From: Balanoglossus misakiensis | Taxonomy: Eukaryota > Animalia > Hemichordata | Length of the DNA stretch: 64,000 bases | NCBI GenBank assembly: GCA_040954595.2 | Contig: JBECUI020000027.1 | Location: forward strand, 62,001 to 126,000 | Reading direction: 5' to 3' | Shown: in pieces, positions 16,421 through 64,000 of the stretch | Layout: the number at the start of each line of letters is the position of its first letter | Position numbering within the stretch: position 1 is the stretch's first letter | Notes under the pieces: model-generated | The model's database searches: none | The model's input: only the letters and a program-made list of their open reading frames with translations | Told to the model about the DNA's origin: nothing | Made by a program: the position numbers and the translations under genes

Positions 16421-17362
16421 TTCACACTTCCCATTCCTAAAACGATGTGGGCTAATATGGTAGAGATAAAGAAAGCAAACTCTACCCCTCTTCACCCCCA
16501 CCTATTTCTTACCATGACTTTTCAGCTTCATAGCTAATTGCCACACCATTACAAACATCGCCGTTCTTGAACAACATCTCTTTGTTCTCCACCTGACTGT
16601 GGCGCAGCTAGATTCAAGCAAAGTGATAGTGGATATCCAAGGTATTGCCGGAACTATGCACACAGTGAACAAATCAACTTAAAATTTTTTCAGGCAACTG
16701 ACTTCTCCTGGAAAATCATCCTAAAAAGAAGAAACGAAAGACAGTTTGTCCAGCATTAATTTCCGTGTTGGCCATGGGCATATCAGGAATCATCGATTTT
16801 GCCTGTATTGGACACTCTTTGAGGATTCTATCGAGAATACTGACAGTCCTGTGCGGCCAGAGGCGTTGAAGTTTCGTCTCTGAAAAAAACCAAAAGATTT
16901 TTAGAATCTCAAGACAGCGTCTTCGAGTTGTCAGCTTCGGTGCAACTGTAATCTCATGTCTTTTCAAACCCCCAAGCATTTCGGTCCAACGGTAGGAGGG
17001 TTTCCCAGTAACATCGTTAACAGCCTGCAGTACCTTGTTCCCGGAGTTCTCCTCACTCTTCAGCAGGGGTTTACAACTCTCTGGTGCTATCCAGAAGGAC
17101 ATTGATGGGTATTCCAGCCACCCAGGAATTCTTGCTTAGAACCCGCCCTTGCCATACAGAGGAATAATCTTATCGACTCCTCTTCAGCCGAACTTTGTTG
17201 ACAAAAGATACGACCAATCCGAGGCATCTGTCGGTTATGCAAAACTGATTATTCTTAATCCCTGGGGTTTTCAGATGAGCAAAAAAGTTGTTCCATTAGC
17301 TTTACCTTCCTGCTCACTTTAAACAATGCCCACAACACGGTGATATCCGCTTTCCCAAAGGC

Positions 17363-17928
17363 TTATCCTACCAGAATGCTCAGATAGAGAACTTCTCCGC
17401 TCCATGAGTTTTTGAAAAACTGTTCCATCCAGATACGCCATTGATGAGTCGATTCCAACAGGTAACGAGTCTCTCTTAGATCTCCTGGTTCACATTGCTC
17501 ATTCTCGGAAGCACTTACCTTGATTTCCTCAAGAGTCTCGGTGATATCTTCAACTCTACACACGGAGACACCGGCTGAACACATTTCAACTAAGGCTTCT
17601 TCAACGGAAGTTTCCCGGCGTTTATAACGCTCAATAATTGCTGTTTCAAATGGAAGCCGAAGTAGGGACAGGTCGCGACCTGTCCCTACTCTGCAGTGAT
17701 ATCCAACTTCCTGGTGTAATGTCCGGCACGAGTAACTTTTTGTGCATACGTAGGTTCGTATTTTTCAGCCTGAAGTAAACTCTCTACCTCCGCATAGAGC
17801 ATGCCATTCAAGGTTGCCTCATACAGATTTCTTTAACCTATTGGGCTCACCTGGTTCTGCATGAGACCTACATCGAGCTGTATGTTCTTTCTGTATGGGT
17901 TTTCTTTGACTTCATTCTGTCTTCCCTG
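17363..17928 (-). mobile_element. IS256-family transposase remnant (5' part) containing one REP palindrome
   Basis: Translates to LPFETAIIERYKRRETSVEEAL..M.SAGVS..RVEDITE, typical of the IS256 N-terminus; homologous to the units at 24.4-29 kb. Confidence 0.85.
17661..17690. repeat. 30-bp perfect palindrome, GTAG-type REP-like element
   Basis: AGTAGGGACAGGTCGCGACCTGTCCCTACT is self-complementary. Confidence 0.85.
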
Positions 17929-18559
17929 TAGAATGGCTGATAGCCTACTATCTGGCCCTCTCCAGTTACGATCTACCGAGATCTTTGTAGCTATTCCTGA
18001 TAACTAAACTTGTCTATTTTTACCAACAAAAGCTTTGTATTTTTCAAGGTGTCCATCTGCTTCAGCCCTGACGGCATCCTATAATAACTTCTGAGTTCTT
18101 TGTTTAATAATTAGCCCAATGGGCTTAGATTTTTAATCGTTTCTGTACGTTCATAGAAAACTGGTTTTTAAGATGTCTATAAGAAGTTCTCCATTAATTC
18201 AGATAAATTCCACCACTGGATAAGAACTCTCGCCGGTAATCTTCTCCAGTTTGACCGGGTACACGAGAAAAAAGGCATTACCGCAAAACCAGGCAATTGC
18301 AAAAAATGTTATTTTTACAACTTTAAAAATAGGGGAAAGATTAATAGCGATTCGTGTTTCGGCAACAACATTGCTGCCTGAGTTAACTCTGTTAGCTTTG
18401 TGTTTAATTTCTTTGTCAAGATGATGGGAGTATGCCTGAGCTCTCCCCTATCACACATTTACCTATTTTTTATGCAAGTGCAGCATTAAAGGAATCAAAA
18501 GTTAAGTTTTTAAAAATAACTTCATTATCACAAGATATCACTTAAAAATATAAGAATTT

Positions 18560-24295: not shown

Positions 24296-24401
24296 AGTCA
24301 GTCATCCTGAAATAGTTGCTTACCCTTTTAACATTCCCACAACTTCTTAGAGAAAATTTGAGGGTAGTGAGAATCGTATTTCAGAACTCCATAGTCTTCT
24401 G

Positions 24402-27400
24402 GGTAGTGTTTAAAAATTGCGCAGATTCTAAAAAGGCAAAAAATGTCCTCCAAAGTTGAAATGGAATCGAATGCAAAACCATGCACACGGAGGACAAAAT
24501 GAGGTCAGAAAAAGACCCCTCGGGAAAGAGCATACAGATTGATGAAGGTCTCCTACAGAGCAGCCAAATGCTTAAAGAAACCGTAGGAGGAAACCTTGAA
24601 TGCCATGCTCAATGCGGAGGCAGATCCTTTACTTCAGGCTGAAAAATACGAACCTACGGATGCACAAAAAGTTACTCGTGCCGGACATTACACCAGGAAG
24701 TTGGAGATCACTGCTTTCAAGAGTAGGGACAGGTCGCGACCTGTCCCTACTTCGGCTTCCATTTGAAACAACAATTATTGAGCGTTATAAACGCCGGGAA
24801 ACATCCGTTGAAGAAGCCTTGGCCCTTTGGGGAAGCAAGGTAAAGCCCTGGGACAATGAGCAATTTGAACCAGGATCTCTTAGTAGGGACAGGTCGCGAC
24901 CTGTCCCTACTTCGGCAGCGACATAGTTGGATACGGAAAGGCTGTATTCGTTTTCTGCAATTTCCTTATTGTATACTAGTTTTGCGAGGTGTTTAATTGG
25001 TAGTGTTTAAAAATTGCGCAGATTCTAAAAAGGCAAAAAATGTCCTCCAAAGTTGAAATGGAATCAAAAGCAAAACCATGCACACGGAGGACAAAATGAG
25101 GTCAGAAAAGACCCCACGGGAAAGAGCATACAGATTGATGAAGGTCTCCTACAGAGCAGCCAAATGCTTAAAGAAACCGTAGGAGGAAACCTTGAATGCC
25201 ATGCTCAATGCGGAGGCAGATCCTTTACTTCAGGCTGAAAAATACGAACCTACGGATGCACAAAAAGATACTCGTGCCGGACATTACACCAGGAAGTTGG
25301 AGATCACTGCTTTCAAGAGCAGGGACAGGTCGCGACCTGTCCCTACTTCGGCTTCCATTCGAAACAGCAATTATTGAGCGTTATAAACGCCGGGAAACAT
25401 CCGTTGAAGAAGCCTTAGTTGAAGTGTATTTAGCTGGTGTTTCAGTGCGCCGAGTTAAAAATATTACCGAGGCGCACTTGGGGGAAGCAAGGTAAAGCCC
25501 TGGGACAATGAGCAATGTGAACCAGGATCTCTTAGTAGGGACAGGTCGCGACCTGTCCCTACTTCGGCAGCGACATAGTTGGATACGGAAAGGCTGTATT
25601 CGTTTTCTGCAATTTCCTTATTGTATACTAGTTTTGCGAGGTGTTTAATTGGTAGTGTTTAAAGAATTGCGCAGATTCTAAAAAGGCAAAAAATGTCCTC
25701 CAAAGTTGAAATGGAATCGAATGCAAAACCATGCACACGGAGGACAAAATGAGGTCAGAAAAAGACCCCACGGGAAAGAGCATACAGATTGATGAAGGTC
25801 TCCTACAGAGCAGCCAAATGCTTAAAGAAACCGTAGGAGGAAACCTTGAATGCCATGCTCAATGCGGAGGCAGATCCTTTACTTCAGGCTGAAAAATACG
25901 AACCTACGGATGCACAAAAAGATACTCGTGCTGGACATTACACCAGGAAGTTGGAGATCACTGCTTTCAAGAGCAGGGACAGGTCGCGACCTGTCCCTAC
26001 TTCGGCTTCCATTTGAAACAGCAATTATTGAGCGTTATAAACGCCGGGAAACATCCGTTGAAGAAGCCTTGGCCCTTTGGGGAAGCAAGGTAAAGCCCTG
26101 GGACAATGAGCAATTTGAACCAGGATCTCTTAGTAGGGACAGGTCGCGACCTGTCCCTACTTCGGCTTCCATTCGAAACAGCAATTATTGAGCGTTATAA
26201 ACGCCGGGAAACATCCGTTGAAGAAGCCTTGGTCCTTTGGGGAAGGCAAGGTAAAGCCCTGGGACAATGAGCAATTTGAACCAGGATCTCTTAGTAGGGA
26301 CAGGTCGCGACCTGTCCCTACTTCGGCAGCGACATAGTTGGATACGGAAAGGCTGTATTCGTTTTCTGCAATTTCCTTATTGTATACTAGTTTTGCGAAG
26401 TGTTTAATTGGTAGTGTTTAAAAATTGCGCAGATTCTAAAAAGGCAAAAAATGTCCTCCAAAGTTGAGATGGAATCGAATGCAAAACCATTCACACGGAG
26501 GACAAAATGAGGTCAGAAAAAGACCCCTCGGGAAAGAGCATACAGATTGATGAAGGTCTCCTACAGAGCAGCCAAATGCTTAAAGAAACCGTAGGAGGAA
26601 ACCTTGAATGCCATGCTCAATGCGGAGGCAGATCCTTTACTTCAGGCTGAAAAATACGAACCTACGGATGCACAAAAAGTTACTCGTGCCGGACATTACA
26701 CCAGGAAGTTGGATATCACTGCTTTCAAGAGTAGGGACAGGTCGCGACCTGTCCCTACTTCGGCTTCCATTCGAAACAGCAATTATTGAGCGTTATAAAC
26801 GCCGGGAAACATCCGTTGAAGAAGCCTTGGCCCTTTGGGGAAGCAAGGTAAAGCCCTGGGACAATGAGCAATGTGAACCAGGATCTCTTAGTAGGGACAG
26901 GTCGCGACCTGTCCCTACTTCGGCAGCGACATAGTTGGATACGGAAAGGCTGTATTCGTTTTCTGCAATTTCCTTATTGTATACTAGTTTTGCGAGGTGT
27001 TTAATTGGTAGTGTTTAAAAATTGCGCAGATTCTAGAAAGGCAAAAAATGTCCTCCAAAGTTGAAATGGAATCGAATGCAAAACCATGCACACGGAGGAC
27101 AAAATGAGGTCAGAAAAAGACCCCACGGGAAAGAGCATACAGATTGATGAAGGTCTCCTACAGAGCAGCCAAATGCTTAAAGAAACCGTAGGAGGAAACC
27201 TTGAATGCCATGCTCAATGCGGAGGCAGATCCTTTACTTCAGGCTGAAAAATACGAACCTACGGATGCACAAAAAGATACTCGTGCTGGACATTACACCA
27301 GGAAGTTGGAGATCACTGCTTTCAAGAGCAGGGACAGGTCGCGACCTGTCCCTACTTCGGCTTCCATTTGAAACAGCAATTATTGAGCGTTATAAACGCC

Positions 27401-28956
27401 GGGAAACATCCGTTGAAGAAGCCTTGGCCCTTTGGGGAAGCAAGGTAAAGCCCTGGGACAATGAGCAATTTGAACCAGGATCTCTTAGTAGGGACAGGTC
27501 GCGACCTGTCCCTACTTCGGCAGCGACATAGTTGGATACGGAAAGGCTGTATTCGTTTTCTGCAATTTCCTTATTGTATACTAGTTTTGCGAGGTGTTTA
27601 ATTGGTAGTGTTTAAAAATTGCGCAGATTCTAAAAAGGCAAAAAATGTCCTCCAAAGTTGAAATGGAATCAAAAGCAAAACCATGCACACGGAGGACAAA
27701 ATGAGGTCAGAAAAGACCCCACGGGAAAGAGCATACAGATTGATGAAGGTCTCCTACAGAGCAGCCAAATGCTTAAAGAAACCGTAGGAGGAAACCTTGA
27801 ATGCCATGCTCAATGCGGAGGCAGATCCTTTACTTCAGGCTGAAAAATACGAACCTACGGATGCACAAAAAGATACTCGTGCTGGACATTACACCAGGAA
27901 GTTGGAGATCACTGCTTTCAAGAGTAGGGACAGGTCGCGACCTGTCCCTACTTCGGCTTCCATTCGAAACAGCAATTATTGAGCGTTATAAACGCCGGGA
28001 AACATCCGTTGAAGAAGCCTTGGCCCTTTGGGGAAGCAAGGTAAAGCCCTGGGACAATGAGCAATTTGAACCAGGATCTCTTAGTAGGGACAGGTCGCGA
28101 CCTGTCCCTACTTCGGCAGCGACATAGTTGGATACGGAAAGGCTGTATTCGTTTTCTGCAATTTCCTTATTGTATACTAGTTTTGCGAGGTGTTTAATTG
28201 GTAGTGTTTAAAAATTGCGCAGATTCTAAAAAGGCAAAAAATGTCCTCCAAAGTTGAAATGGAATCAAAAGCAAAACCATGCACACGGAGGACAAAATGA
28301 GGTCAGAAAAAGACCCCACGGGAAAGAGCATACAGATTGATGAAGGTCTCCTACAGAGCAGCCAAATGCTTAAAGAAACCGTAGGAGGAAACCTTGAATG
28401 CCATGCTCAATGCGGAGGCAGATCCTTTACTTCAGGCTGAAAAATACGAACCTACGGATGCACAAAAAGTTACTCGTGCCGGACATTACACCAGGAAGTT
28501 GGATATCACTGCTTTCAAGAGTAGGGACAGGTCGCGACCTGTCCCTACTTCGGCTTCCATTTGAAACAACAATTATTGAGCGTTATAAACGCCGGGAAAC
28601 ATCCGTTGAAGAAGCCTTGGCCCTTTGGGGAAGCAAAATAAAGCCCTGGGACAATGAGCAATTTGAACCAGGATCTCTTAGTAGGGACAGGTCGCGACCT
28701 GTCCCTACTTCGGCTTCCATTTGAAACAACAATTATTGAGCGTTATAAACGCCGGGAAACATCCGTTGAAGAAGCCTTGGCCCTTTGGGGAAGGAAGGTA
28801 AAGCCCTGGGACAATGAGCAATGTGAACCAGGATCTCTTAGTAGGGACAGGTCGCGACCTGTCCCTACTTCGGCAGCGACATAGTTGGATACGGAAAGGC
28901 TGTATTCGTTTTCTGCAATTTCCTTATTGTATACTAGTTTTGCGAAGTGTTTAATT
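24402..28956 (+). repeat. Tandem array of 7 units (596-759 bp) of a degenerate IS256 left end with REP insertions
   Basis: Units start with GGTAGTGTTTAAA at 24402, 24999, 25651, 26410, 27007, 27604, 28200; each has a frameshifted IS256 5' fragment (LNAMLNAEAD..RAGHYTRKL..ERYKRRETSVEEAL) and 2-3 palindromes. Confidence 0.93.
24722..28869. repeat. 16 copies of the 30-bp REP-like palindrome AG(T/C)AGGGACAGGTCGCGACCTGTCCCTACT
   Basis: Starts at 24722, 24882, 25318, 25534, 25972, 26132, 26293, 26730, 26890, 27327, 27487, 27923, 28083, 28520, 28680, 28840. Confidence 0.9.
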
Positions 28957-29469
28957 GGTAGTGTTTAAAAATTGCGCAGATTCTAAAAAGGCAAGGATAC
29001 TAAAGCTCTTCATAAGCGACAGATGCATCGGGTTGGCCTGAATCCATCGAAGAGTTTTTCCCCAAAGCACGATGGCAACGATGCGTTGTTCACTATTACC
29101 GGAATGTATTCTCAGTAGTTCCCCGTGAGAAGGTCTGTGAAGTTGCAGCAATGCCTGAACAATTCATGCACAAGAAGATTGTGATGATGCTCTTGAGAAG
29201 GCTCAACTGATTGAAGGGAAACTCCGCATATGAAACTTCCCAAGGCTGCTGACATGGTGAGAAACTATATCCACGAAACTCTTGAGCATTTCCCCCGATG
29301 GGGATTCGGCCCTTATGCTATCAGCTGCCAGGCTCAGGCAGATCATGGGAACAAAATGGAGTACAGAAAAGTATTTGAATATGGACTTACTTAAAGCGAT
29401 AAGGCAAGATGCACGTTAGGCTCTTTCAACATTGGAGATTTGAAAGTGCGCAAAATTCTTGACACTACC
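28957..29469 (+). mobile_element. Internally deleted IS256 remnant with both terminal inverted repeats
   Basis: IRL GGTAGTGTTTAAAAATTGCGCA at 28957; IRR TGCGCAAAATTCTTGACACTACC at 29447-29469; decayed FPKARWQRCVVHYYRNV segment; no target-site duplication recognised. Confidence 0.8.
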
Positions 29470-44942: not shown

Positions 44943-46815
44943 AAGCTATTGAACTCCGCAGCGATGTGATACAGAAAAGGGCATGCCAAATAGTAAAACA
45001 AGGAGGACTGGAGCCCTGGATTGAATCATTAGAGAATAACGGACTGCTTGATATGCCCCTTGTCGAGGCCCTGGTGTTGGGACTGCTGCGGCAGGGCATA
45101 CGCAAGTATTTGGTAATTTTTGGTCATGGATCCACCGCCCTTGGCGAGGTGCTGCGCATTTATTCCAAGGAAAAATTGATTAAGTGTTTTTCTTTTCGTA
45201 ATGAAATCTCCATGGCCCACGCCGCGACCTCCCTTCGCTGGGTATTCGACGAACCGGTTGCCCTGGTCACTTCGATTGGTCCCGGTGCTCTGCAGGCCAT
45301 GTCCGCCTCCCTGGCAGCCAGTTCAAACGGCATCGGGGTTTATCACATTTATGGCGACGAGACAAGCGGCGGCGAAGGCTACAATATGCAGCAGATACCC
45401 AAGCCGGAGCAGGGACTGTTTGGCCAACTGACAGCAATAATGGGCCGGAGTTATACGCTCCACACCCCCATTGCCCTGAGAGAAGCCATGCGGCAGGGGG
45501 CAGCAACGGTGTTTCATCCGAGTCATGCCACTCCCTTCTTCATCAACCTTCCTCTCAACACACAGTGGGAATGTGTGCGGATACGTTTGGCCACCCTGCC
45601 TCAAAGACCAAAACAGGCCCCCCTTGTTACCGTCTGTGAGGATCGTTTTGACCAAGCGATCAAGCGTATAAAAGCTCATAAAAAATAGCCATAAAAATCG
45701 GCCGGGGAGCGGGGGGATGTGCTGCTGAGCTTAGAGAGTTGGTTGAGAAATCGGGAGCTGTGGCGGTACTGAGTCCTGGTTCCACTGGAGCCCTGGCAGA
45801 TGCTCACAAGCAAAACATGCATGTTGGTGGTTCTAAAGGATCCATCAGCGGTAATTTCGCCATGGACAATGCGGAATTATTGATTGTCATAGGCTCCCGA
45901 GCCGTTTGCCAGAGTGATTGTTCTGGCATCGGCTGGCCCAGGGTCTCTGAGGTTATTAACATCAACACCGATCTTATAGATGCCCATCACTACCACAACA
46001 CAACAGCGCTTGTCGGTGATGCCAAAGAAACCCTGAAGCGCCTTGTTCAAGGTCTTGACGAACTTCGCGAGCAGTCCACAGATTGGTTGAAGGCCTGTGC
46101 TGAGGCCAAAGACAAATGGCAAAATCTCCTACGGGAACGCAGCACTGGAAGGGGAAAGTTGGATGTTGTATGGGGACGTGAGGTACTCACCCAACCCCAG
46201 GCCATTCATGTTGTGGCGGAATTCTGCAAACAACAGGAAGCGCTTAAGTTCTTTGATGCCGGGGACGTGCAGGCTAACGGATTTCAGATTGTTACGGATG
46301 ACAAGCTCGGAACGACCTTTACAGAATCGGGGGCTTCTTACATGGGTTTTGCCGTTTCGGCCCTGACGGCTTTGGGTATTGCCGATAGGAAATGCTATGG
46401 GGTGGCCTTTACTGGTGACGGATCTTTCATGATGAATCCTCAGGTCCTAATCGACGGTGTAGAACACGGTGCCCATGCCACCATTGCTCTTTTTGACAAT
46501 AGGCGTATGGGAGCCATCAGTGCCTTGCAGCTAGCCCAGTTCGGCTTTGATTTTCAAACCAACGATCATGTTGATATTGACTATGTCAAGTTGGCCAGTG
46601 CCGTGTCGGGTGTTAAAGCTTTATTTGGTGGTTATGACCGCCAAAGTCTTATCTCGGCTCTGAAGGAGGCAAAAGCGTATAAGGGAATCAGCCTCATACA
46701 TATTCCGGTTTATTTTGGTAAGGATCCCACGGGTAGTATGGGGGCGTATGGACAATGGAATGTCGGAAACTGGAGTGCTGCGGTCCAGGAGAAATATCTG
46801 CAATCAAGAATCTGA
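44939..46815 (+). pseudogene. TPP-dependent enzyme (IolD-like), one frameshift
   Basis: IFGHG, RNE..MAHAA, TSIGPGA (IolD-like N-terminus) and GDGSF..N..DN TPP motif; one extra A in the A6 run at 45680-45685 would join the two ORFs. Confidence 0.8.
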
Positions 46816-53092: not shown

Positions 53093-54590
53093 TTAATTAT
53101 CCAAAATAATCAATTCGAACACATGAAATTGTGGCATATAGTCATCAACAGAGAACCTCCAGGTACCCTCTAGTGACGTTACTATAGTGGGAATTTGTAG
53201 GCAAAAATAGGTATTGGGTCTACTTCCAAAAGCTGTTTCATCTCCCAATACATCAGCATTAACAACTGTACTACCAAAAATACCATATCCATCAGATATG
53301 ACGCTCAGTGTGGGTGTTTCTTGAGTGTAATAAGGGGAAACGTTTTTCGTAGCATAAGTCCTTATTACACCTGGAATGATTATTGTTTGTCCCAAATATG
53401 CTTTAACGTCTCTTCCTATGCTTCCCCAATCCTGAGATTCTGCCAAGGTGGTAGCGATTGATAGGGATTGATCACTTTTGTATTGCGATCCACCCTCATA
53501 TTCTATGCCCATATACAGGTTGTATTCTGTTTCCGGAGTAAGATTTAAAATGGGCATCCATTGAGCTTTGTTTTTTTGCAAATTATACGTTTGCCACAAA
53601 GGGGTAGCTGCCTTTAAAGCCCCTATATCTACGGGAGCTGAGGCAGTTTTGGGCAGGGCAATAGCGTATATAACAGCATTTTGTACATCCACCTGCAGTT
53701 CGGCGTAACCTACCCAGAGGTAAGAACCGGGTTGTGTATGATCGTTCATATCACCAGTAGAAAAAGTTAAAAAAGGAGTATAGCGAAGGCGCAGAATATA
53801 TTCTCCAATAGTTCCGTTTTCGGCAGTAATAACTACGGTTTGGTCTTCTTCCACTACGGCAAAATCCTCTTTCAATAAAGGAATATTGAGTGCTGACAAA
53901 TTTGTTTGTGGTTCCCCGTCCAATGACAGCGTAGCATTTTGGGAGATTTCAAAGGATAGACCCACGACATCAGCCGTGGTGTTATAATCGTAATTGACCT
54001 GAATTGTCCTATTAGAAAATTCAACCACTACAGAAGGATCTAAAGAAGACACACCGGCAATAAGGGCTTCTGTATTCGGAATATAAACTATTTTTAGCGT
54101 GTACTCATTGATCGTTTGTCCGTCTTCGGCAATTACCTTTATGAGAAGGGTTTTACTTGAGGTTAAATCAAAAGTGTATTGATTGTTATCGACGAGTGTT
54201 CCATCTATTTCCAGGCTAGCTCCAGCTGAGATGTCGAACATAAGGGTAGCGTTGTTTATTTCCGTTTCATAGGAACGTGTAAGTGTGATGATTTTCTGAC
54301 CTTCATCAAAATCGACAGCAGTCTGCATTGTTTCGTCGGTCAAACTGACCGTGGAAATGGCTGCTTGGTCCGACTTAGGCAGGTTACAGGAGAAAAGAAC
54401 CATGACTATTCCGAGAACAAGAGAGGCAAAACTGAGCTTATGCCGGATTAACTTAGATAACGATCTTCGTGCGCGTGGAGGGGGGTGAGTGAGTGAGTGA
54501 GTGAGTGAGTGAGTGAGTGAGTGAGTGAGTGAGTGAGTGAGTGAGTGAGTTTTTACTCACTTCACAGCCGTTTTGATGGATATGTTTCAT
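53093..54590 (-). CDS. Phase-variable surface lipoprotein (locus 1; two cadherin-like/DUF5018-type domains plus FN3-like domain), out of frame
   Basis: True ATG at 54590 behind GAGGA; (ACTC)16 in the leader; signal RRSLSKLIRHKLSFASLVLGIVMVLFSC; ATG-to-body distance 187 nt; two V.AE.G...EY.L motifs. Confidence 0.8.
54487..54550 (-). repeat. (ACTC)16 simple sequence repeat in the leader of locus 1
   Basis: 64 nt of GAGT on the + strand; G6 tract adjacent. Confidence 0.97.
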
Positions 54591-54606
54591 TGCATTTTCC
54601 TCATCT

Positions 54607-54682
54607 TATATAGAATTTATTTCAGGGTAAGCCAAGTACCCTTTAACCTTGATAGTTTAACACAGTTATTGCTGCTTATCTA
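54607..54682 (-). promoter_or_regulatory. Two candidate sigma70 promoters in the shared lipoprotein module (repeated upstream of loci 2-4)
   Basis: TAGATA-N17-TAAACT with extended TGn (54682-54654) and TTGGCT-N17-TATATA (54635-54607). Confidence 0.5.
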
Positions 54683-54889
54683 CACCCTTTCCTTGTTTGT
54701 CTATTTTTTTGCTTCTAGGGGGGATAGTGCGGAGCTTGGTTTATGGTTCAATCGGCCTAGGATTCCTGAACTTGCCTGAACCTTTTTAAAAAGGCAGCAC
54801 CTAAGCGATGTCTTGGGGGAAGCGATTGGTTATTCTTAGTCCGATTCCGCCATCTGGAGGCTGGGGCGGGGCCTTAAGGGTTGGCGGGC

Positions 54890-55557
54890 CCTACCTCCCG
54901 GGCCGCCGGGGGCTAAACCGAGCCACACAGCCCCGGGGACGCCGACTCCCGAAGCGGCACCGGCATCGCTGGACCGAAGCAGGCGGGGCCTTAAAGTTTA
55001 GTGCCCACTACCCTCCGGGCCGCCAGGGGCTAAACCGAACCACACAGCCTCGGGGACGACGCCTCACGAAGCGGCACCAGCATCGCTGGACCGAAGCAGG
55101 CGGGGCCTTAAAGTTTAGTGCCCCAGGGCCTGCCGGGGCTAAACCGAACCACACAGCCTCGGGGAGGCCGCCTCACGAAGCGGCACCGGCATCGCTGGAC
55201 CGACACAGGCGGGGCCTTAAAGTTTAGTGCCCCCGGGCCGCCGGGGCTAAACCGAGCCACACAGCCTCGGGGAGACCGCCTCACGAAGCGGCACCGGCAT
55301 CGCTGGACCGAAGCAGGCGGGGCCTTAAAGTTTCGTGCCCACTACCCTCCGGGCCCGCCGGGGCTAAACCGAAGACCACAGCCTCGGGGACGCCGCCTCA
55401 CGAAGCGACACCAGCATCGCTGGACCGAAGCAGGCGGGGCCTTAAAGTTTAGTGCCCACTACCCTCCGGGCCGCCAGGGGCTAAACCGAACCACACAGCC
55501 TCGGGGAGGCCGCCTCACGAAGCGGCACCGGCATCGCTGGACCGAAGCAGGCGGGGC
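54890..55557. repeat. Array of 6 GC-rich 108-117 bp units
   Basis: GCTAAACCG anchors at 54912, 55029, 55138, 55246, 55363, 55480. Confidence 0.93.
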
Positions 55558-55563
55558 TCTTGT

Positions 55564-57181
55564 CTATTCGGTTAGATAATCGCTTTCTCCCGTGTAGTTT
55601 ACCGCCTTTACCCGGTATGTTAATCCCTGCCATTTCTGCACGTCATGAAAGCTAAGCTCCTGAGTATACTCACCTTCAGCGTTATATGCCGACACAACAC
55701 CAAGGCTCAGCCAGGACTCCCCTCCGTCTCTGCTGTACTCCACGACATAGCCCGAAGGCGCATCGGTATCCACCGTGATGGCGTTAGTAGAATAGGGTGT
55801 GTAGACTGTTCTTTGGTTAAGAGATGAAGCTGTCCAACTCAACTGGTAACCGTTGTTGTAATTCACACCTAAACCGCTCGGCGACGGGGGAACTAAGGGA
55901 CTCGTATAGATACTGTATAAGAAGTTAGCACGCTCCCCTGCAAAAAATAAGTCTATATACAGGTAAAATCTATAGGCAAAGTTTGGTAAATCTTCACTTT
56001 GGATAACATTCCTCTCATCTTCTAAAATATTAGCACCAATCGCTGGAGTCTCAAAATCTTTCCAATAGATATACTCACTGGCAGAATAGGCATCGACCCG
56101 ATTCTGACTAGCAAGACTACGGGGAGTCGCTCCATTGACCAAGCTTTCTTTTGCATCAAAAAATCTGAGGTCATAGAGGGAGGCATCGGCATCCGGACCC
56201 CCTGTAAATCCCTTTGTTACCCCAAAATTCCATATCATATCGGTAATGCTGGGGGCCAATGTCTCCACCGTCAATCGAGCATAGGCAGGAACATAACCGA
56301 GGTTATCTCTGTCGAACCAGGGCTTTGTGTATTCCTTTGTTAGTCCATAGAAGCCTCCTGTAGTTCCAACTAAGGAAAGGTTTAGTCTTGCGGCATAGGT
56401 GGAAACCTTAAGGGATGCAGAAGTTTGCGTTTCTCCCTGGGCGTTTTTGGAAACTATCCTGTAGTGATATTGCGTTCCCCCCTGTAGTGAATCATCTTCA
56501 TACGTTTCTGCAGAAAGATTCTCAGCCAGGGTTTCCCACCTTGTAGCGTCTACAGAGCGTTCAACGGCGTAACTTGAGGTGCTCGCGTCTATGCTCCGCC
56601 AGGCTATTTTTATCTGATCAGCGCTTACGAACATGGGCTGGAGACCGACCACGGGTAAGAACTGCGCTGGGGTAAAAGCTTTGATACTCTTTAACGTGTA
56701 GGTGCTTTCCTCTCCGTTCTCAGCAGTGATGATAATCGTGTAGCTTTGGTCATTATCTGAAAAGTCAAAACGATATTGGTTGGAGCTAATGATTTCGTCA
56801 TTGATAGATAGTGTGGCCTTCTGCGAGATATCAAAGATCAAAACAACATGGGTGGCTGTGGCTTCATCAGTGCGGCTAAGGGTGATGGTTTTGCTTGTTT
56901 CATCAAGTTCTACTCTGACGCCAAGGGTGTCGCTTTGGGGGGCGACCGTGTTAATGAAAGATTGATCCGACTTAGGTAGGTCACAGGAGAAAAAAACCAT
57001 GACTATTCCGAGAACAAGAGAGGCAAAACTGAGCTTATGCTGGATTAACTTAGATAACGATCTTCGTGCGCGTGGATGGGTGAGTGAGTGAGTGAGTGAG
57101 TGAGTGAGTGAGTGAGTGAGTGAGTGAGTGAGTGAGTGAGTTTTTACTCACTTCACAGCCGTTTTGATGGATATGTTTCAT
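55564..57181 (-). CDS. Phase-variable surface lipoprotein paralogue A (cadherin-like, FN3, variable domain, FN3), out of frame
   Basis: ATG 57181; (ACTC)15; lipobox FFSC; distance to body ATG 181 nt; FN3 motifs W....SY.VERS.D...W and Y.D..L..GT.Y.YRI. Confidence 0.85.
57082..57141 (-). repeat. (ACTC)15 simple sequence repeat in the leader of locus 2
   Basis: 60 nt of GAGT. Confidence 0.97.
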
Positions 57182-57483
57182 TGCATTTTCCTCATCTTAT
57201 ATAGAATTTATTTCAGGGTAAGCCAAGTACCCTTTAACCTTGATAGTTTAACACAGTTATTGCTGCTTATCTACACCCTTTCCTTGTTTGTCTATTTTTT
57301 TGCTCCTAGGGGGGGGGATAGTGCGGAGCCTAGTTGATGGTTCAATCGGCCTAGGATTCCTGAACTTGCCTGAACCTTTTTAAAAAGGCAGCACCTAAGC
57401 GATGTCTTGGGGGAAGCGATTGGTTATTCTTAGGCCGATTCCGCCATCTGGAGGCTGGGGCGGGGCCTTAAGGGTTGGCGGGC

Positions 57484-58020
57484 CCTACCTCCCGGGCCGC
57501 CGGGGGGCTAAACCGAGCCACAGAGCCTCGGGGACGACGCCTCACGGAGCGGCACCAGCATCGCTGGACCGAAGCAGGCGGGGCCTTAAAGTTTAGTGCC
57601 CCCGGGCCCGCCGGGGCTAAACCGAGCCACACAGACTCGGGGAGGCCCGCCTCACGAAGCGACACCAGCATCACTGGACCGACACAGGCGGGGCCTTAAA
57701 GTTTAGTGCCCCCGGGCCCGCCGGGGCTAAACCGAGCCACACAGACTCGGGGAGGCCGCCTCACGAAGCGACACCAGCATCGCTGGACCGAAGCAGGCGG
57801 GGCCTTAAAGTTTAGTGCCCCCGGGGCTGCCGGGGCTAAACCGAGCCACACAGCCTCGGGGACGACGCCTCCAGAAGCGGCACCAGCATCGCTGGACCGA
57901 AGCAGGCGGGGCCTTAAAGTTTAGTGCCCCCGGGCCCGCCAGGCTAAACCGAGCCACACAGCCTCGGGGAGACCGCCTCACGAAGCGGCACCGGCATCGC
58001 TGGACCGAAACAGGCGGGGC
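57484..58020. repeat. Array of 5 GC-rich 108-110 bp units
   Basis: Anchors at 57507, 57616, 57726, 57835, 57943. Confidence 0.93.
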
Positions 58021-58026
58021 TCTTGT

Positions 58027-59648
58027 CTATTCAGTTAGATAATCGCTTTCTCCCGTGTAGTTTACTGCCTTTACCCGGTATGTTAATCCCTGCCATTTCT
58101 GCACGTCATGAAAGCTAAGCTCCTGAGTATACTCACCTTCAGCGTTATATGCCGACACAACACCAAGGCTCAGCCAGGACTCCCCTCCGTCTCTGCTGTA
58201 CTCCACGACATAGCCCGAAGGCGCATCGGTATCCACCGTGATGGCGTTACTAGAATAGGGTGTGTAGACTGTTCTTTGGTTAAGAGATGAAGCTGTCCAA
58301 CTCAACTGGTAACCGTTGTTGTAATTCACTCCTAAACCGCTCGGCGACGGGGGAGCTAAGGGACTCGTATAGATACTGTATGAGAAATAAGCACTCTCCC
58401 CTGCAAAAAAGAAGTTTACAAATAGGTTAAATCTATAAGCAAAATTGGGTAAATCTTCACTTTGGATGACATTACTCTCATCTTCTAAAATATTAGTGCC
58501 AATATGTGGAATCTCAAAATCTTTCCAATAGATATACTCACTGGCAGAATAGGCATCGACCCGTTGCTGAGTAGCAAGAGCACGGTAAGTCGCTCCATTA
58601 ACCAAGCTTTCTTTTGCATCATAAAATTGGATTATATAGAGGAAGGCATCGTTATCCGCCCCCCCTGTAAATCCCTTTGTTACCCCAAAATTCCATATCA
58701 TATCGGTAATGCTGGGGGCCAATGTCTCCACCGTCAATCGAGAATAGGCAGGAGCATACTTGTTGGCTTCTGATAGATCAGCTACCCAGGGCTTTGTGTA
58801 TTCCTTTGTTAGTCCATAGGTCCCTCCGCTCCCTCCGCTTCCTCGAGAGTAAGTGGAAACCTTAAGGGATGCAGAAGTTTGCGTTTCTCCTTGGGAGTTT
58901 TTGGAAACTATCCTGTAGTGATATTGCGTTCCCGCCTGTAGTGAATCATCTTCATACGTTTCTGCAGAAAGATTCTCAGCCAGGGTTTCCCACGTTGTGC
59001 CATCTGCAGAGCGTTCCACGGCGTAACTTGAGGTACTTGCGTCTATGCTCCGCCAGGCTATTTTTACCTGATCAGCGCTTACGAACATGGGCTGGAGACC
59101 GACCACGGGTAAGAACTGCGCTGGGGTAAAAGCTTTGATATTCTTTAACGTGTAGGTGCTTTCCTCTCCATTCTCAGCAGTGATGATAATCGTGTAGCTT
59201 TGGTCATTATCTGAAAAGTCAAAACGATATTGGTTGGAGCTAATGATTTCGTCATTGATAGATAGCGTGGCCTTCTGCGAGATATCAAAGATCAAAACAA
59301 CATGGGTGGCTGTGGCTTCACCAGTGCGGCTAAGGGTGATGGTTTTGCTTGTTTCATCAAGTTCTACGGTGACGCCAAGGGTGTCGCTTTGGGGGGCGAC
59401 CGTGTTAATGAAAGATTGATCCGACTTAGGTAGGTCACAGGAGAAAAAAACCATGACTATTCCGAGAACAAGAGAGGCAAAACTGAGCTTATGCTGGATT
59501 AACTTAGATAACGATCTTCGTGCGCGTGGAGTGAGTGAGTGAGTGAGTGAGTGAGTGAGTGAGTGAGTGAGTGAGTGAGTGAGTGAGTGAGTGAGTGAGT
59601 GAGTGAGTTTTTACTCACTTCACAGCCGTTTTGATGGATATGTTTCAT
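58027..59648 (-). CDS. Phase-variable surface lipoprotein paralogue B, out of frame
   Basis: ATG 59648; (ACTC)20; distance to body ATG 194 nt; most divergent central domain. Confidence 0.85.
59529..59608 (-). repeat. (ACTC)20 simple sequence repeat in the leader of locus 3
   Basis: 80 nt of GAGT. Confidence 0.97.
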
Positions 59649-59949
59649 TGCATTTTCCTCATCTTATATAGAATTTATTTCAGGGTAAGCCAAGTACCCT
59701 TTAACCTTGATAGTTTAACACAGTTATTGCTGCTTATCTACACCCTTTCCTTGTTTGTCTATTTTTTTGCTCCTAGGGGGGGGATAGTGCGGAGCTTGGT
59801 TTATGGTTCAATCGGCCTAGGATTCCTGAACTTGTCTGAACCTTTTTAAAAAGGCAGCACCTAAGCGATGTCTTGGGGGAAGCAATTGGTTGTTCTTAGG
59901 CCGATTTCGCCATCTGGAGGCTGGGGCGGGGCCTTAAGGGTTGGCGGGC

Positions 59950-60820
59950 CCTACCTCCCGGGCCGCCAGGGGCTAAACCGAGCCACACAGACTCGGGGAC
60001 GACGCCTCACGAAGCGGCACCAGCATCGCTGGACCGACACAGGCGGGGCCTTAAAGTTTAGTGCCCCCGGGCTGCCGGGGCTAAACCGAAGACCACAGCC
60101 TCGGGGACGACGCCTCACGAAGCGACACCAGCATCGCTGGACCGAAGCAGGCAGGGCCTTAAAGTTTAGTGCCCCGGGCTGCCGGGGCTAAACCGAGCCA
60201 CACAGCCTCGGGGACGCCGACTCCAGAAGCGGCACCGGCATCGCTGGACCGACACAGGCGGGGCCTTAAAGTTTAGTGCCCCCGGGCTGCCGGGGCTAAA
60301 CCGAACCACACAGCCTCGGGGACGCCGACTCCCGAAACGGCACCGGCATCGCTGGACCGACACAGGCGGGGCCTCAAAGTTTAGTGCCCCGGGCTGCCGG
60401 GGCTAAACCGAGCCACACAGCCTCGGGGAGGCCGCCTCCAGAAGCGGCACCGGCATCGCTGGACCGAAGCAGGCGGGGCCTTAAAGTATAGTGCCCCCGG
60501 GCTGCCGGGGCTAAACCGAGCCACACAGCCTCGGGGAGGCCGCCTCACGAAGCGGCACCGGCATCGCTGGACCGAAACAGGCGGGGCCTTAAAGTTTAGT
60601 GCCCACTACCCCCGGGCCGCCGGGAGCTAAACCGAGCCACACAGCCTCGGGGACGACGCCTCACGAAGCGGCACCGGTATCGCTGGACCGAAGCAGGCGG
60701 GGCCTTAAAGTTTAGTGCCCACTACCCCCCGGGTCACCAGGGGCTAAACCGAGCCACACAGCCTCGGGGACGACGCCTCACGAAGCGGCACCAGCATCGC
60801 TGGACCGACACAGGCGGAGC
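59950..60820. repeat. Array of 8 GC-rich 107-117 bp units
   Basis: Anchors at 59972, 60080, 60187, 60295, 60402, 60510, 60626, 60743. Confidence 0.93.
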
Positions 60821-60826
60821 TCTTGT

Positions 60827-62445
60827 CTATTCGGTTAGATAATCGCTTTCTCCCGTGTAGTTTACCGCCTTTACCCGGTATGTTAATCCCTGCCATTTCT
60901 GCACGTCATGAAAGCTAAGCTCCTGAGTATACTCACCTTCAGCGTTATATGCCGACACAACACCAAGGCTCAGCCAGGACTCCCCTCCGTCTCTGCTGTA
61001 CTCCACGACATAGCCTGAAGGGGCGTCGGTATTCACGGTAATGGCGTTAGTAGAATAGGGTGTGTAGACTGTTTTTTGGTTAAGAGATGAAGCTGTCCAA
61101 CTCAACTGGTAACCGTTGTTGTAATTCACTCCTAACCCGCTCGGCGACTGGGGAGCTAAGGGACTCGTATAGATACTGTATAAGAAGTTAGCACGCTCCC
61201 CTGCAAAAAATAAGTCTATATACAGGACAAATCTATAGGCAAAATTTGGTAAATCTTCACTTTGGATAACATTACTCTCATCTTCTAAAATATTAGCGCC
61301 AATCTTTTGAGTCCCAAGATCTTTCCAATAGATATACTCACTGGCAGAATAGGCATCGACCCGTTGCTGAGTAGCAAGAGTACGGGGAGTCGCTCCATTG
61401 ACCAAGCTTTCTTTTGCATCAAAAAATGTGAGTTCATAGATGGAGGCATCGGCATGCGGCCCCCCTGTAAATCCCTTTGTTACCCCAAAATTCCATATCA
61501 TATCGGTAATGCTGGGGGCCAATGTCTCCACCGTCAATCGAGCATAGGCAGGAGCATAACCGAGGTTATCTCTGTCGAACCAGGGCTGCGTGTATTCCTT
61601 TGTTAGTCCATAGAAGCCTCCTGTAGTTCCAACTAAGGAAAGGTTTAGTCTTGCGGCATAGGTGGAAACCTTAAGGGATGCAGAAGTTTGCGTTTCTCCT
61701 TGGGCGTTTGTGGAAACTATCCTGTAGTGATATTGCGTTCCCGACTGTAGTGAATCATCTTCATACGTTTCTGCAGAAAGATTCTCAGCCAGGGTTTCCC
61801 ACCTTGTAGCGTCTGCAGAGCGTTCCACGGCGTAACTTAAAGTACTTGCGTCTATGCTCCGCCAGGCTATTTTTATCTGATCAGCGCTTACGAACATGGG
61901 CTGGAGACCGACCACGGGTAAGAACTGTGCTGGGGTAAAAACTTTGATACTCTTTAACGTGTAGGTGCTTTCCTCTCCGTTCTCAGCAGTGATGATAATC
62001 GTGTAGCTTTGGTCATTATCTGAAAAGTCAAAACGATATTGGTTGGAGCTAATGATTTCGTCATTGATAGATAGCGTGGCCTTCTGCGAGATATCAAAGA
62101 TCAAAACAACATGGGTGGCTGTGGCTTCATCAGTGCGGCTAAGGGTGATGGTTTTGCTTGTTTCATCAAGTTCTACGGTGACGCCAAGAGTGTCGCTTTG
62201 GGGGGCGACCGTGTTAATGAAAGATTGATCCGACTTAGGTAGGTCACAGGAGAAAAAAACCATGACTATTCCGAGAACAAGAGAGGCAAAACTGAGCTGG
62301 GGCCGGATTAACTTAGATAACGATCTTCGTACGCGTGGAGGGGGTGAGTGAGTGAGTGAGTGAGTGAGTGAGTGAGTGAGTGAGTGAGTGAGTGAGTGAG
62401 TGAGTTTTTACTCACTTCACAGCCGTTTTGATGGATATGTTTCAT
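60827..62445 (-). CDS. Phase-variable surface lipoprotein paralogue C, out of frame
   Basis: ATG 62445; (ACTC)15 plus G5 tract; distance to body ATG 182 nt. Confidence 0.85.
62346..62405 (-). repeat. (ACTC)15 simple sequence repeat in the leader of locus 4
   Basis: 60 nt of GAGT. Confidence 0.97.
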
Positions 62446-62747
62446 TGCATTTTCCTCATCTTATATAGAATTTATTTCAGGGTAAACCAAGTACCCTTTA
62501 ACCTTGATAGTTTAACACAGTTATTGCTGCTTATCTACACCCTTTCCTTGTTTGTCTATTTTTTTGCTCCTAGAGGGGGGATAGTGCGGAGCTTGGTTTA
62601 TGGTTCAATCGGCCTAGGATTCCTGAACTTGCCTGTACCTTTTTAAAAAGGCAGCACCTAAGCGATGTCTTGGGGGAAGCGATTGGTTATTCTTAGGCCG
62701 ATTCCGCCATCTGGAGGCTGGGGCGGGGCCTTAAGGTTAGGATGGGC

Positions 62748-62964
62748 CTTACCCCCCGGGCCGCCAGGGGCTAAACCGAGCCACACAGCCTCGGGGACGC
62801 CGCCTCACGGAGCGACACCAGCATCGCTGGACCGAAACAGGCGGGGCCTTAAAGTTTAGTGCCCACTACCCTCCGGGCCGCCAGGGGCTAAACCGAACCA
62901 CACAGCCCAGGGGAGACAACATCACGAAGCGGTACCGGCATCGCTGGACCGAAACAGGCGGGGC
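62748..62964. repeat. Array of 2 GC-rich 117 bp units
   Basis: Anchors at 62770 and 62887. Confidence 0.9.
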
Positions 62965-62970
62965 TCTTGT

Positions 62971-64000
62971 CTATTCGGTTAGATAATCGCTTTCTCCAGT
63001 GTAGTTTACTGCCTTTACCCGGTATATCAATCCCTGCCATCTCTGCACGTCATGAAAGCTAAGCTCCTGAGTATACTCACCTTCAGCGTTATATGCCGAC
63101 ACAACACCAAGGCTCAGCCAAGACTCCCCTCCGTCTCTGCTGTACTCCACGACATAGCCCGAAGGCGCATCGGTATCCACCGTGATGGCGTTACTAGAAT
63201 AGGGTGTGTAGACTGTTTTTTGGTTAAGAGATGAAGCTGTCCAACTCAACTGGTAACCGTTGTTGTAATTCACTCCTAAACCGCTCGGCGACGGGGGAAC
63301 TAAGGGACTCGTATAGATACTGTATAAGAATTTAGCACTATTCCCTGCAAAAAATAAGTCTATATACAGGTAAAATCTATAGGCAAAGTTTGGTAAATCT
63401 TCACTTTGGATAACATTCCTCTCATCTTCTAAAATATTAGTGCCACTATCTTGACTCCCAAAATCTTTCCAATAGATATACTCACTGGCAGAATAGGCAT
63501 CGACCCGATTCTGACTAGCAAGAGGACGGGGAGTCGCTCCATTGACCAAGCTTTCTTTTGCATCAAAAAAGTCGACTTGATAGAGGGAGGCATCGGCATG
63601 CGGCCCCCCTGTAAATCCCTTTGTTACCCCAAAATTCCATATCATATCGGTAATGCTGGGGGCCAATGTCTCCACCGTCAATCGAGCATAGGCAGGAGCA
63701 TAACCGAGGTTATATCTGTCGAACCAGGGCTTTGTGTATTCCTTTGTTAGTCCATAGGATTGTGCATCTCCAGCTAAGGAAATGTTTAGTCTTGCGGCAT
63801 AGGTGGAAACCTTAAGGGATGCAGAAGTTTGCGTTTCTCCTTGGGCGTTTTTGGAAACTATCCTGTAGTGATATTGCGTTCCCGACTGTAGTGAATCATC
63901 TTCATACGTTTCTGCAGAAAGATTCTCAGCCAGGGTTTCCCACGTTGTAGCGTCTGCAGAGCGTTCAACGGCGTAACTTGAGGTACTTGCGTCTATGCTC
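62971..64000 (-). CDS. Surface lipoprotein paralogue D, 5' end outside the window
   Basis: Frame stays open upstream of the ORF-track TTG at 63681 (..KVSTYAARLNISLAGDAQSYGLTKEY..) and the DNA aligns with paralogues A-C to the window edge. Confidence 0.88.
   Translation of the reverse strand, partial: SIDASTSSYAVERSADATTWETLAENLSAETYEDDSLQSGTQYHYRIVSKNAQGETQTSASLKVSTYAARLNISLAGDAQSYGLTKEYTKPWFDRYNLGYAPAYARLTVETLAPSITDMIWNFGVTKGFTGGPHADASLYQVDFFDAKESLVNGATPRPLASQNRVDAYSASEYIYWKDFGSQDSGTNILEDERNVIQSEDLPNFAYRFYLYIDLFFAGNSAKFLYSIYTSPLVPPSPSGLGVNYNNGYQLSWTASSLNQKTVYTPYSSNAITVDTDAPSGYVVEYSRDGGESWLSLGVVSAYNAEGEYTQELSFHDVQRWQGLIYRVKAVNYTGESDYLTE

Follow-up and report, generated by a model that had tools for sequence, protein, structure and literature searches.

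The stretch of DNA analyzed here (hereafter, the window) comprises 64 kb of contig JBECUI020000027.1, deposited within the genome assembly of the hemichordate Balanoglossus misakiensis (GCA_040954595.2), and all coordinates given below are window positions. On the minus strand, positions 53093–64000 carry a head-to-tail array of predicted lipoprotein genes, each unit of which consists of a GC-rich repeat array, an upstream block, a leader, and the gene body (Table 1). The ACTC tracts within the leaders were the only 4-base tandem arrays in the window, for which Tandem Repeats Finder returned 11 rows. An earlier note on this DNA had described a tandem gene family with a repeat in each leader, and we confirmed the perfect (ACTC)16, (ACTC)15, (ACTC)20, and (ACTC)15 tracts, the leader ATGs at positions 54590, 57181, 59648, and 62445 (7 nt after a GAGGA motif in 4/4 copies), and the body of a fifth gene leaving the window. 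As a family of equal copies, the description applies to B1–B4 but not to gene A, which is a distant paralogue with 42% identity to B1 over residues 1–106.

Table 1. Features of the lipoprotein gene array (window positions).
Feature	Position	Strand	Description
Gene A body	53093..54403	-	436 amino acids from internal Met before lipobox; two cadherin-like/Ig-like domains, then unassigned C-terminal part
Leader A	54404..54590	-	ATG, 40 nt, tract, C6-containing linker, n-/h-region; frame off by 1
(ACTC)16 tract of leader A	54487..54550	-	Tandem Repeats Finder
Upstream block A	54591..54860	-	GAGGA, weak sigma-70-like match; poly-C = C6, 54718-54723
Intergenic GC-rich array A	54865..55557	.	~6 units of 108-117 bp
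Gene B1 body	55564..57000	-	478 amino acids from internal Met; Ig-like, Fn3, variable central, and conserved C-terminal domain (Fn3-like by eye)
B1 variable central domain	55912..56400	-	Alignment columns 201-365; homologue not found
Leader B1	57001..57181	-	Frame off by 1
(ACTC)15 tract of leader B1	57082..57141	-	Tandem Repeats Finder
Upstream block B1	57182..57480	-	poly-C = C9, 57309-57317
Intergenic array B1	57491..58020	.	~5 units
Gene B2 body	58027..59454	-	475 amino acids; central domain most divergent
Leader B2	59455..59648	-	No linker; frame off by 2
(ACTC)20 tract of leader B2	59529..59608	-	Tandem Repeats Finder
Upstream block B2	59649..59950	-	poly-C = C8, 59776-59783
Intergenic array B2	59957..60817	.	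~8 units
Gene B3 body	60827..62263	-	478 amino acids
Leader B3	62264..62445	-	C5-containing linker; frame off by 2
(ACTC)15 tract of leader B3	62346..62405	-	Tandem Repeats Finder
Upstream block B3	62446..62745	-	Interrupted poly-C of 8, ~62573-62580
Intergenic array B3	62750..62964	.	~2 units
Gene B4	62971..64000	-	Last 342 codons; 5' end and leader beyond window

In all four leaders, the tract is located at codon 14, and the 40 nt preceding it are 100% identical among the copies. A short linker, different from copy to copy, comes next, and the segment beyond it encodes VFFS-C or VLFS-C behind a basic n-region and a hydrophobic core. The n-region of this post-tract segment has a net charge of +4 to +5, the core is uncharged with a best 15-residue hydropathy of 2.6, and the end resembles a lipobox; read by hand, the h-region is LSFASLVLGIVM, followed by VFFS or VLFS and then Cys. 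Spirochaetal lipoproteins are described as having a charged n-region, an uncharged h-region of at least six residues ending in L, I, V, F, Y, or M, a four-residue lipobox, and Cys (PMC8877311). The leaders showed this layout when checked by hand against these rules.

The leader ATG and the internal ATG are 187 nt apart in A, 181 nt in B1, 194 nt in B2, and 182 nt in B3, which corresponds to frame offsets (mod 3) of 1, 1, 2, and 2, so all four leaders are out of frame as assembled. On translation, the out-of-frame products are 43–49 amino acids long and stop 7–11 codons past the tract. Each leader is one 4-base unit away from frame, and an in-frame allele was computed to place 64–71 residues before the Cys. 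The earlier note had read the leader as one peptide (MKHIHQ...(SLTH)n...PRARR...C), but no copy (0/4) encodes it in a single frame. Its proposal that the real start lies upstream of the lipobox Met is supported. Two of the frames leading into the tract meet a stop within 0–2 codons, and the third, which holds the GAGGA-preceded ATG, is open for 18 codons in 4/4 copies. Between the tract and the internal Met, no in-frame ATG, GTG, or TTG was found in the four leaders, only ATC and ATA, and the internal Met itself is unfit as the start of a signal peptide because only VFFS or VLFS, which is too short, precedes the Cys. The ACTC repeat is stop-free in all frames, and its complement has a stop in every frame.

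All five gene bodies are free of stops. The B proteins consist of an immunoglobulin (Ig)-like first domain, an Fn3 domain, a variable center, and a conserved C-terminal domain, and gene A encodes two cadherin-like domains (PF12733, E 5e-6), the second of which is 33% identical to B1. Among B1–B4, the ratio of nonsynonymous to synonymous differences per site (pN/pS) was 0.15–0.48 in the N- and C-terminal flanks (12/12 pairwise comparisons) and 0.84–3.77 in the central 165 columns (six pairs), values that are not independent of one another and are of a kind distorted by gene conversion. The central domain contained 56 amino-acid-changing versus 11 silent-only columns; the corresponding counts for the four-sequence flanks were 14 and 18 (Fisher p = 1e-4). 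The silent density did not differ between the center and flanks (p = 0.33). This enrichment bears out the variable domain noticed earlier, and the central domain of the B proteins clearly appears to be under relaxed or diversifying selection, with conserved flanks. The stop-free bodies and the flank ratios in 12/12 comparisons indicate that the lipoproteins are, or recently were, made. Across 20 informative sites, the nearest partner of B1 switches among B2, B3, and B4, which fits recombination between units. Diversity-generating retroelements, such as that of Treponema denticola TvpA, are recognized by variation only at adenines, a C-terminal variable repeat, and a reverse transcriptase. The central domain was rejected as a target of such an element: at 40 of its 91 variable positions, A is missing from every copy, the variable region lies in the middle of the protein, and no reverse transcriptase was identified among the 44 window proteins scanned with Pfam.

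The stop-free repeat, the intact and selected bodies, and the differing tract lengths agree with the anatomy of a translational repeat switch, as the earlier note had supposed. On the basis of these sequence features, we consider it probable that the array represents slipped-strand phase variation of a lipoprotein repertoire, of the type known from the Opa and Hgp proteins of Neisseria and Haemophilus. The (ACTC)n tract within the coding sequence of the export signal would act as an on/off switch. If one unit were gained or lost, the upstream start would be linked in frame with the signal core, yielding a predicted lipid-anchored, probably surface-exposed protein, whereas an out-of-frame allele would give only the short peptide seen on translation. 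The in-frame allele would produce a prelipoprotein, and cleavage would remove the repeat-encoded part. With approximately one-third of the allele lengths in frame, a population may show differing subsets of the paralogues, which would share the Ig/Fn3 stalk and differ in the central domain. Recombination between the units would probably keep the switch cassette uniform and reshuffle the variable domain.

The place of initiation could be different from that assumed in this switch model. If translation started at the in-frame ATC (Ile) codon before the h-region, or re-initiated there after the stop of the leader peptide, the tract would tune expression rather than gate it. The signal would then have a normal length of approximately 20 residues, and both wrong-frame stops either overlap this ATC or are no more than 4 nt away from it. 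However, ATC is a poor start codon, and no ribosome-binding site precedes it, whereas the upstream ATG is preceded by GAGGA at 7 nt in 4/4 copies. Initiation at the ATC would also leave the perfect tracts of 15–20 units unexplained, and we regard it as unlikely.

Several points nevertheless weigh against an on/off switch, in addition to the limits of the pN/pS values stated above. The surface location and adhesion are inferred from the Fn3 and cadherin-like domains and the pattern of variability, and a signal of 64–71 residues is long. None of the four copies is in frame (a chance of 0.20 if one in three is on), so they include no natural on-allele. The length differences observed among tracts are those between paralogues, and the k-mer contigs of sequencing run X1 cannot size tracts. 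Furthermore, single-base homopolymer frame breaks occur at positions 45680, 42618, and 41912 in ordinary genes of the window, and in both A and B3 a single base within a C-run (the C6 and C5 linkers) separates the leader from frame; these linkers are prone to homopolymer errors, so the off state is less sure for A and B3 than for B1 and B2. One of the three breaks splits a thiamine pyrophosphate-enzyme (iolD-like) gene, the other two split a sugar-binding-protein gene, and they may represent either assembly errors or gene decay.

Run X1 contains 97% of the window words but is not independent of the window because it may be its source. When 215 X1 contigs were aligned to gene B1, many variants were seen; among the 40 variants listed (there were 63 further), nine did not occur in B2, in B3, or in the part of B4 that lies inside the window, three of these nine falling outside that part of B4. 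The X1 contigs at window positions 57075, 56664, and 55782 include one that joins an ACTC tract to a linker foreign to the window, and their loose ends belong to other genes sharing single domains only. These variants, the new linker, and the loose ends indicate that further paralogues or strains exist, the family and its leader reaching past the window in the former case.

Such additional variants could also be expected if the array consisted of recently amplified silent or decaying copies that serve as donors for a distant expression site, in the style of Borrelia vls or Mycoplasma synoviae vlhA, with the microsatellite as a passenger. The lack of any in-frame copy, the mosaic sharing of sites, the insertion sequence (IS) remnants, and the three other frame breaks in the window are compatible with this scenario. 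However, the copies are full-length, and all have a ribosome-binding site, a start, and an upstream block of their own, unlike promoterless cassettes (PMC4534519), the bodies are stop-free with purifying selection on their flanks, and the frame break falls at the tract in every copy. A silent role is therefore improbable. It is very unlikely that the out-of-frame state is itself an assembly artifact and the tract a tolerated spacer in genes that are really in frame. Although the homopolymer breaks and the C-runs of A and B3 point in this direction, B1 and B2 have no C-run, and the sole homopolymer that they do have, A5 ahead of the tract, is shared unchanged by all four leaders. The rate of such breaks is also low, with three breaks among ~1,070 runs of at least 4 bases in the first 52.5 kb and none in the 6.6 kb of gene bodies, and a perfect 4-base tract would slip regardless.

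The upstream block is ~290 bp long, and the copy in A is 96–97% identical to those of B1–B3. Similarly, leader A is 95–100% identical to the B1–B3 leaders, whereas the next 270 nt are only 54% identical, indicating that the switch cassette was copied or homogenized across divergent genes. Under strict settings, the promoter scan gave no match immediately before the leaders; a relaxed search found a sigma-70-like match (8 of 12) before three of the four leaders, located 16 nt before the ATG in A. No terminator-like site was found on the coding strand of the array region, intergenic arrays included. One transcript may possibly span the whole array, in which case each gene would still be switched separately by its own frameshift. 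The independent switch per gene proposed in the earlier note is not supported by separate promoters or terminators, none of which passed the scans. It is highly improbable that the tract is part of a regulatory leader peptide acting through transcriptional attenuation, like the GCAGA repeats of Streptococcus gallolyticus pil1 (PMC3894217), because, although the out-of-frame state does contain a short leader open reading frame of repeat-dependent length, there is no coding-strand terminator-like site, the leader RNA folds worse than shuffled sequences (z +1.5), and the downstream gene has no canonical start of its own. A poly-C run on the coding strand ends 127 nt before each leader ATG (Table 1); it may possibly be a second, transcription-level variable site resembling the poly-G tracts of T. 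pallidum, or assembly noise.

The intergenic arrays consist of GC-rich units of 107–117 bp, and their different copy numbers (~6, 5, 8, and 2 units) indicate unequal recombination or slippage. The only match to Rfam (E 0.38) was far below the cut-off, and 7/7 units folded no better than shuffles (z -1.4 to +0.7). Consequently, the coupling of these arrays to the switch suggested by the earlier note is left without support: there is no credible Rfam match, the folding is ordinary, and no terminators were found. The unit lengths argue against a coding function; CRISPR was rejected from the lack of unique spacers, and attC from the misfitting order of the core sites (judged by eye against the consensus). 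The array-unit motif had no matches in the JGI metagenomes, and the upstream block with the array matched 3 of 301 sampled Spirochaetota genomes only over 24–42 nt (E ~1e-3), which we took as chance. It is conceivable, although we put this forward only tentatively, that the switch is a portable cassette made up of the upstream block, start, ACTC tract, and signal. Recombination, perhaps at the 108–117-bp arrays, would graft this cassette onto various lipoprotein genes and so give rise to a combinatorial surface repertoire across the genome, centered on a diversifying binding domain not described before.

The array proteins had only Fn3, weak F5/8, and cadherin-like matches in Pfam and none at the cut-off in NCBIfam; membership in the Opa or Hgp family was rejected, as an outer-membrane barrel domain was not among these matches. 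For protein B1, one weak Fn3 match was found among 7998 candidates scored, the best 150 matches among 3867 representatives chiefly covered the first Fn3 region, and weak matches to the Ig/Fn3 region occurred in 5 of 38 genomes. No homologue of the central domain was found among 569 longer candidates, in the Atlas, or in the PDB sequences. Gene A likewise had no homologue among 4483 candidates, and its Atlas matches were all <0.9, giving DUF5018/BACON-type leads only. The fold predictions were of low confidence (predicted local distance difference test scores of 40.5 and 30.5), and Foldseek matches to Fn3 tandems therefore add nothing beyond Pfam.

A MiaB-like protein encoded in the window showed at most 65% identity (best match) to 80 GTDB loci. 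In a quick single-gene tree, it fell within a supported set of 19 rows, all Spirochaetota, beside the metagenome-assembled genome L013. This placement is consistent with the spirochaete origin suggested by the earlier note and supports the view that the host is a deep-branching uncultured spirochaete. The leader DNA had no matches in GTDB contigs or JGI metagenomes, and no second strain was found there. A tract of (ACTC)7 or longer occurred in none of the 99 genomes from one spirochaete order and in 3 of 401 sampled Spirochaetota genomes, most of the sampled spirochaete genomes being fragmented assemblies, which lose such tracts. In two spirochaete genomes of 25% GC, L087 (G260) and L086 (G415), (ACTC)15–20 lies upstream of genes with their own ribosome-binding site and ATG. 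L087 carries two tandem S-adenosylmethionine (SAM)-methyltransferase-like genes with one ACTC tract each. The tract comes immediately after the ATG of a short leader in L086 and in one of the L087 copies. These tracts are possibly leader-type or transcriptional switches, distinct from the array described here. L088 (G518) has an ACTC tract, at least 18 + 19 units long, that extends across an assembly gap and has no clear gene context. Elsewhere in the window, a unit of ~597 bp is amplified ~7x at positions 24400–29000 with 98–99% identity; it contains transposase-like fragments with no Pfam or NCBIfam match, and a motif that we take to be IS256-like. These units are broken by a 28-bp palindrome that occurs 17x in the window, and a longer IS-like remnant lies at 16700–17940 on the minus strand.

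The Opa proteins of Neisseria are outer-membrane beta-barrels encoded at dispersed loci. They form a multigene surface family (11 opa genes; PMC11868660), in which CTCTT repeats in the signal-peptide coding region turn expression on and off by frameshift and the variable domains are recombined (PMC3960869, PMC4534519). The earlier note had not recognized its combination of features as described, but a repeat in the signal peptide, a multigene family, variable domains, and recombination together constitute the Opa design (PMC3960869, PMC4534519). The array resembles opa in its non-triplet repeat in the signal-peptide coding region, its multigene family, and its variable domains, whereas it differs in encoding lipoproteins with Ig/Fn3 domains, in its head-to-tail arrangement, and in the 4-base rather than 5-base unit, located in the n-region; no sequence relationship between the two was found. 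In Haemophilus influenzae, hgpA, hgpB, and hgpC carry (CCAA)n in the 5' reading frame, and 22–32% of these genes are on in isolates (PMC9341677), which agrees with the mostly-off copies here. The hgp genes also share a tetranucleotide tract and paralogous surface proteins with the array, but they encode haem-uptake receptors that are not lipoproteins, number two to four per strain, are not in tandem, and have a different repeat unit.

Among tandem lipoprotein genes, the vlhA adhesin genes of Mycoplasma gallisepticum are full-length and each have their own repeat switch (PMC4534519), but this is a trinucleotide upstream of the promoter acting on transcription, not a coding frameshift. Surface-antigen variation within the same phylum includes TprK, Borrelia vlsE, which changes by gene conversion from silent cassettes (PMC4534519), and T. 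pallidum tpr/tp0126, in which a promoter poly-G acts on transcription (PMC7864442); a review also places T. pallidum among the organisms with repeat-mediated variation (PMC11868660). Neither the poly-G nor the vlsE system equips the individual genes of a lipoprotein array with a tetranucleotide switch in their coding sequence. A vls-type system would have promoterless, truncated donors and one expression site; the copies here are full-length with an upstream block and start. A coding-repeat switch in a spirochaete lipoprotein array was not found among the literature matches listed, most subscription journals being outside the search. The mechanism is a textbook one, and the spirochaete lipoprotein setting is what the literature search did not find. 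If the reading as a phase-variable repertoire is correct, all genes of a lipoprotein array would carry a coding-repeat switch, a case of convergence in this phylum with the Opa proteins of Neisseria. Such a repertoire would suggest that the bacterium lives in association with a host and that antibodies, innate receptors, or phages select on its surface. The central domain would be a candidate new binding module, its variable residues marking the likely binding face, and we see the portable cassette and the orphan variable domain as the features that merit follow-up. Tentatively, Opa-style coding-repeat switching could represent a third, so far overlooked route beside gene conversion and promoter poly-G, such systems being easily missed because short-read assemblies break at the tracts and gene callers start at the lipobox.

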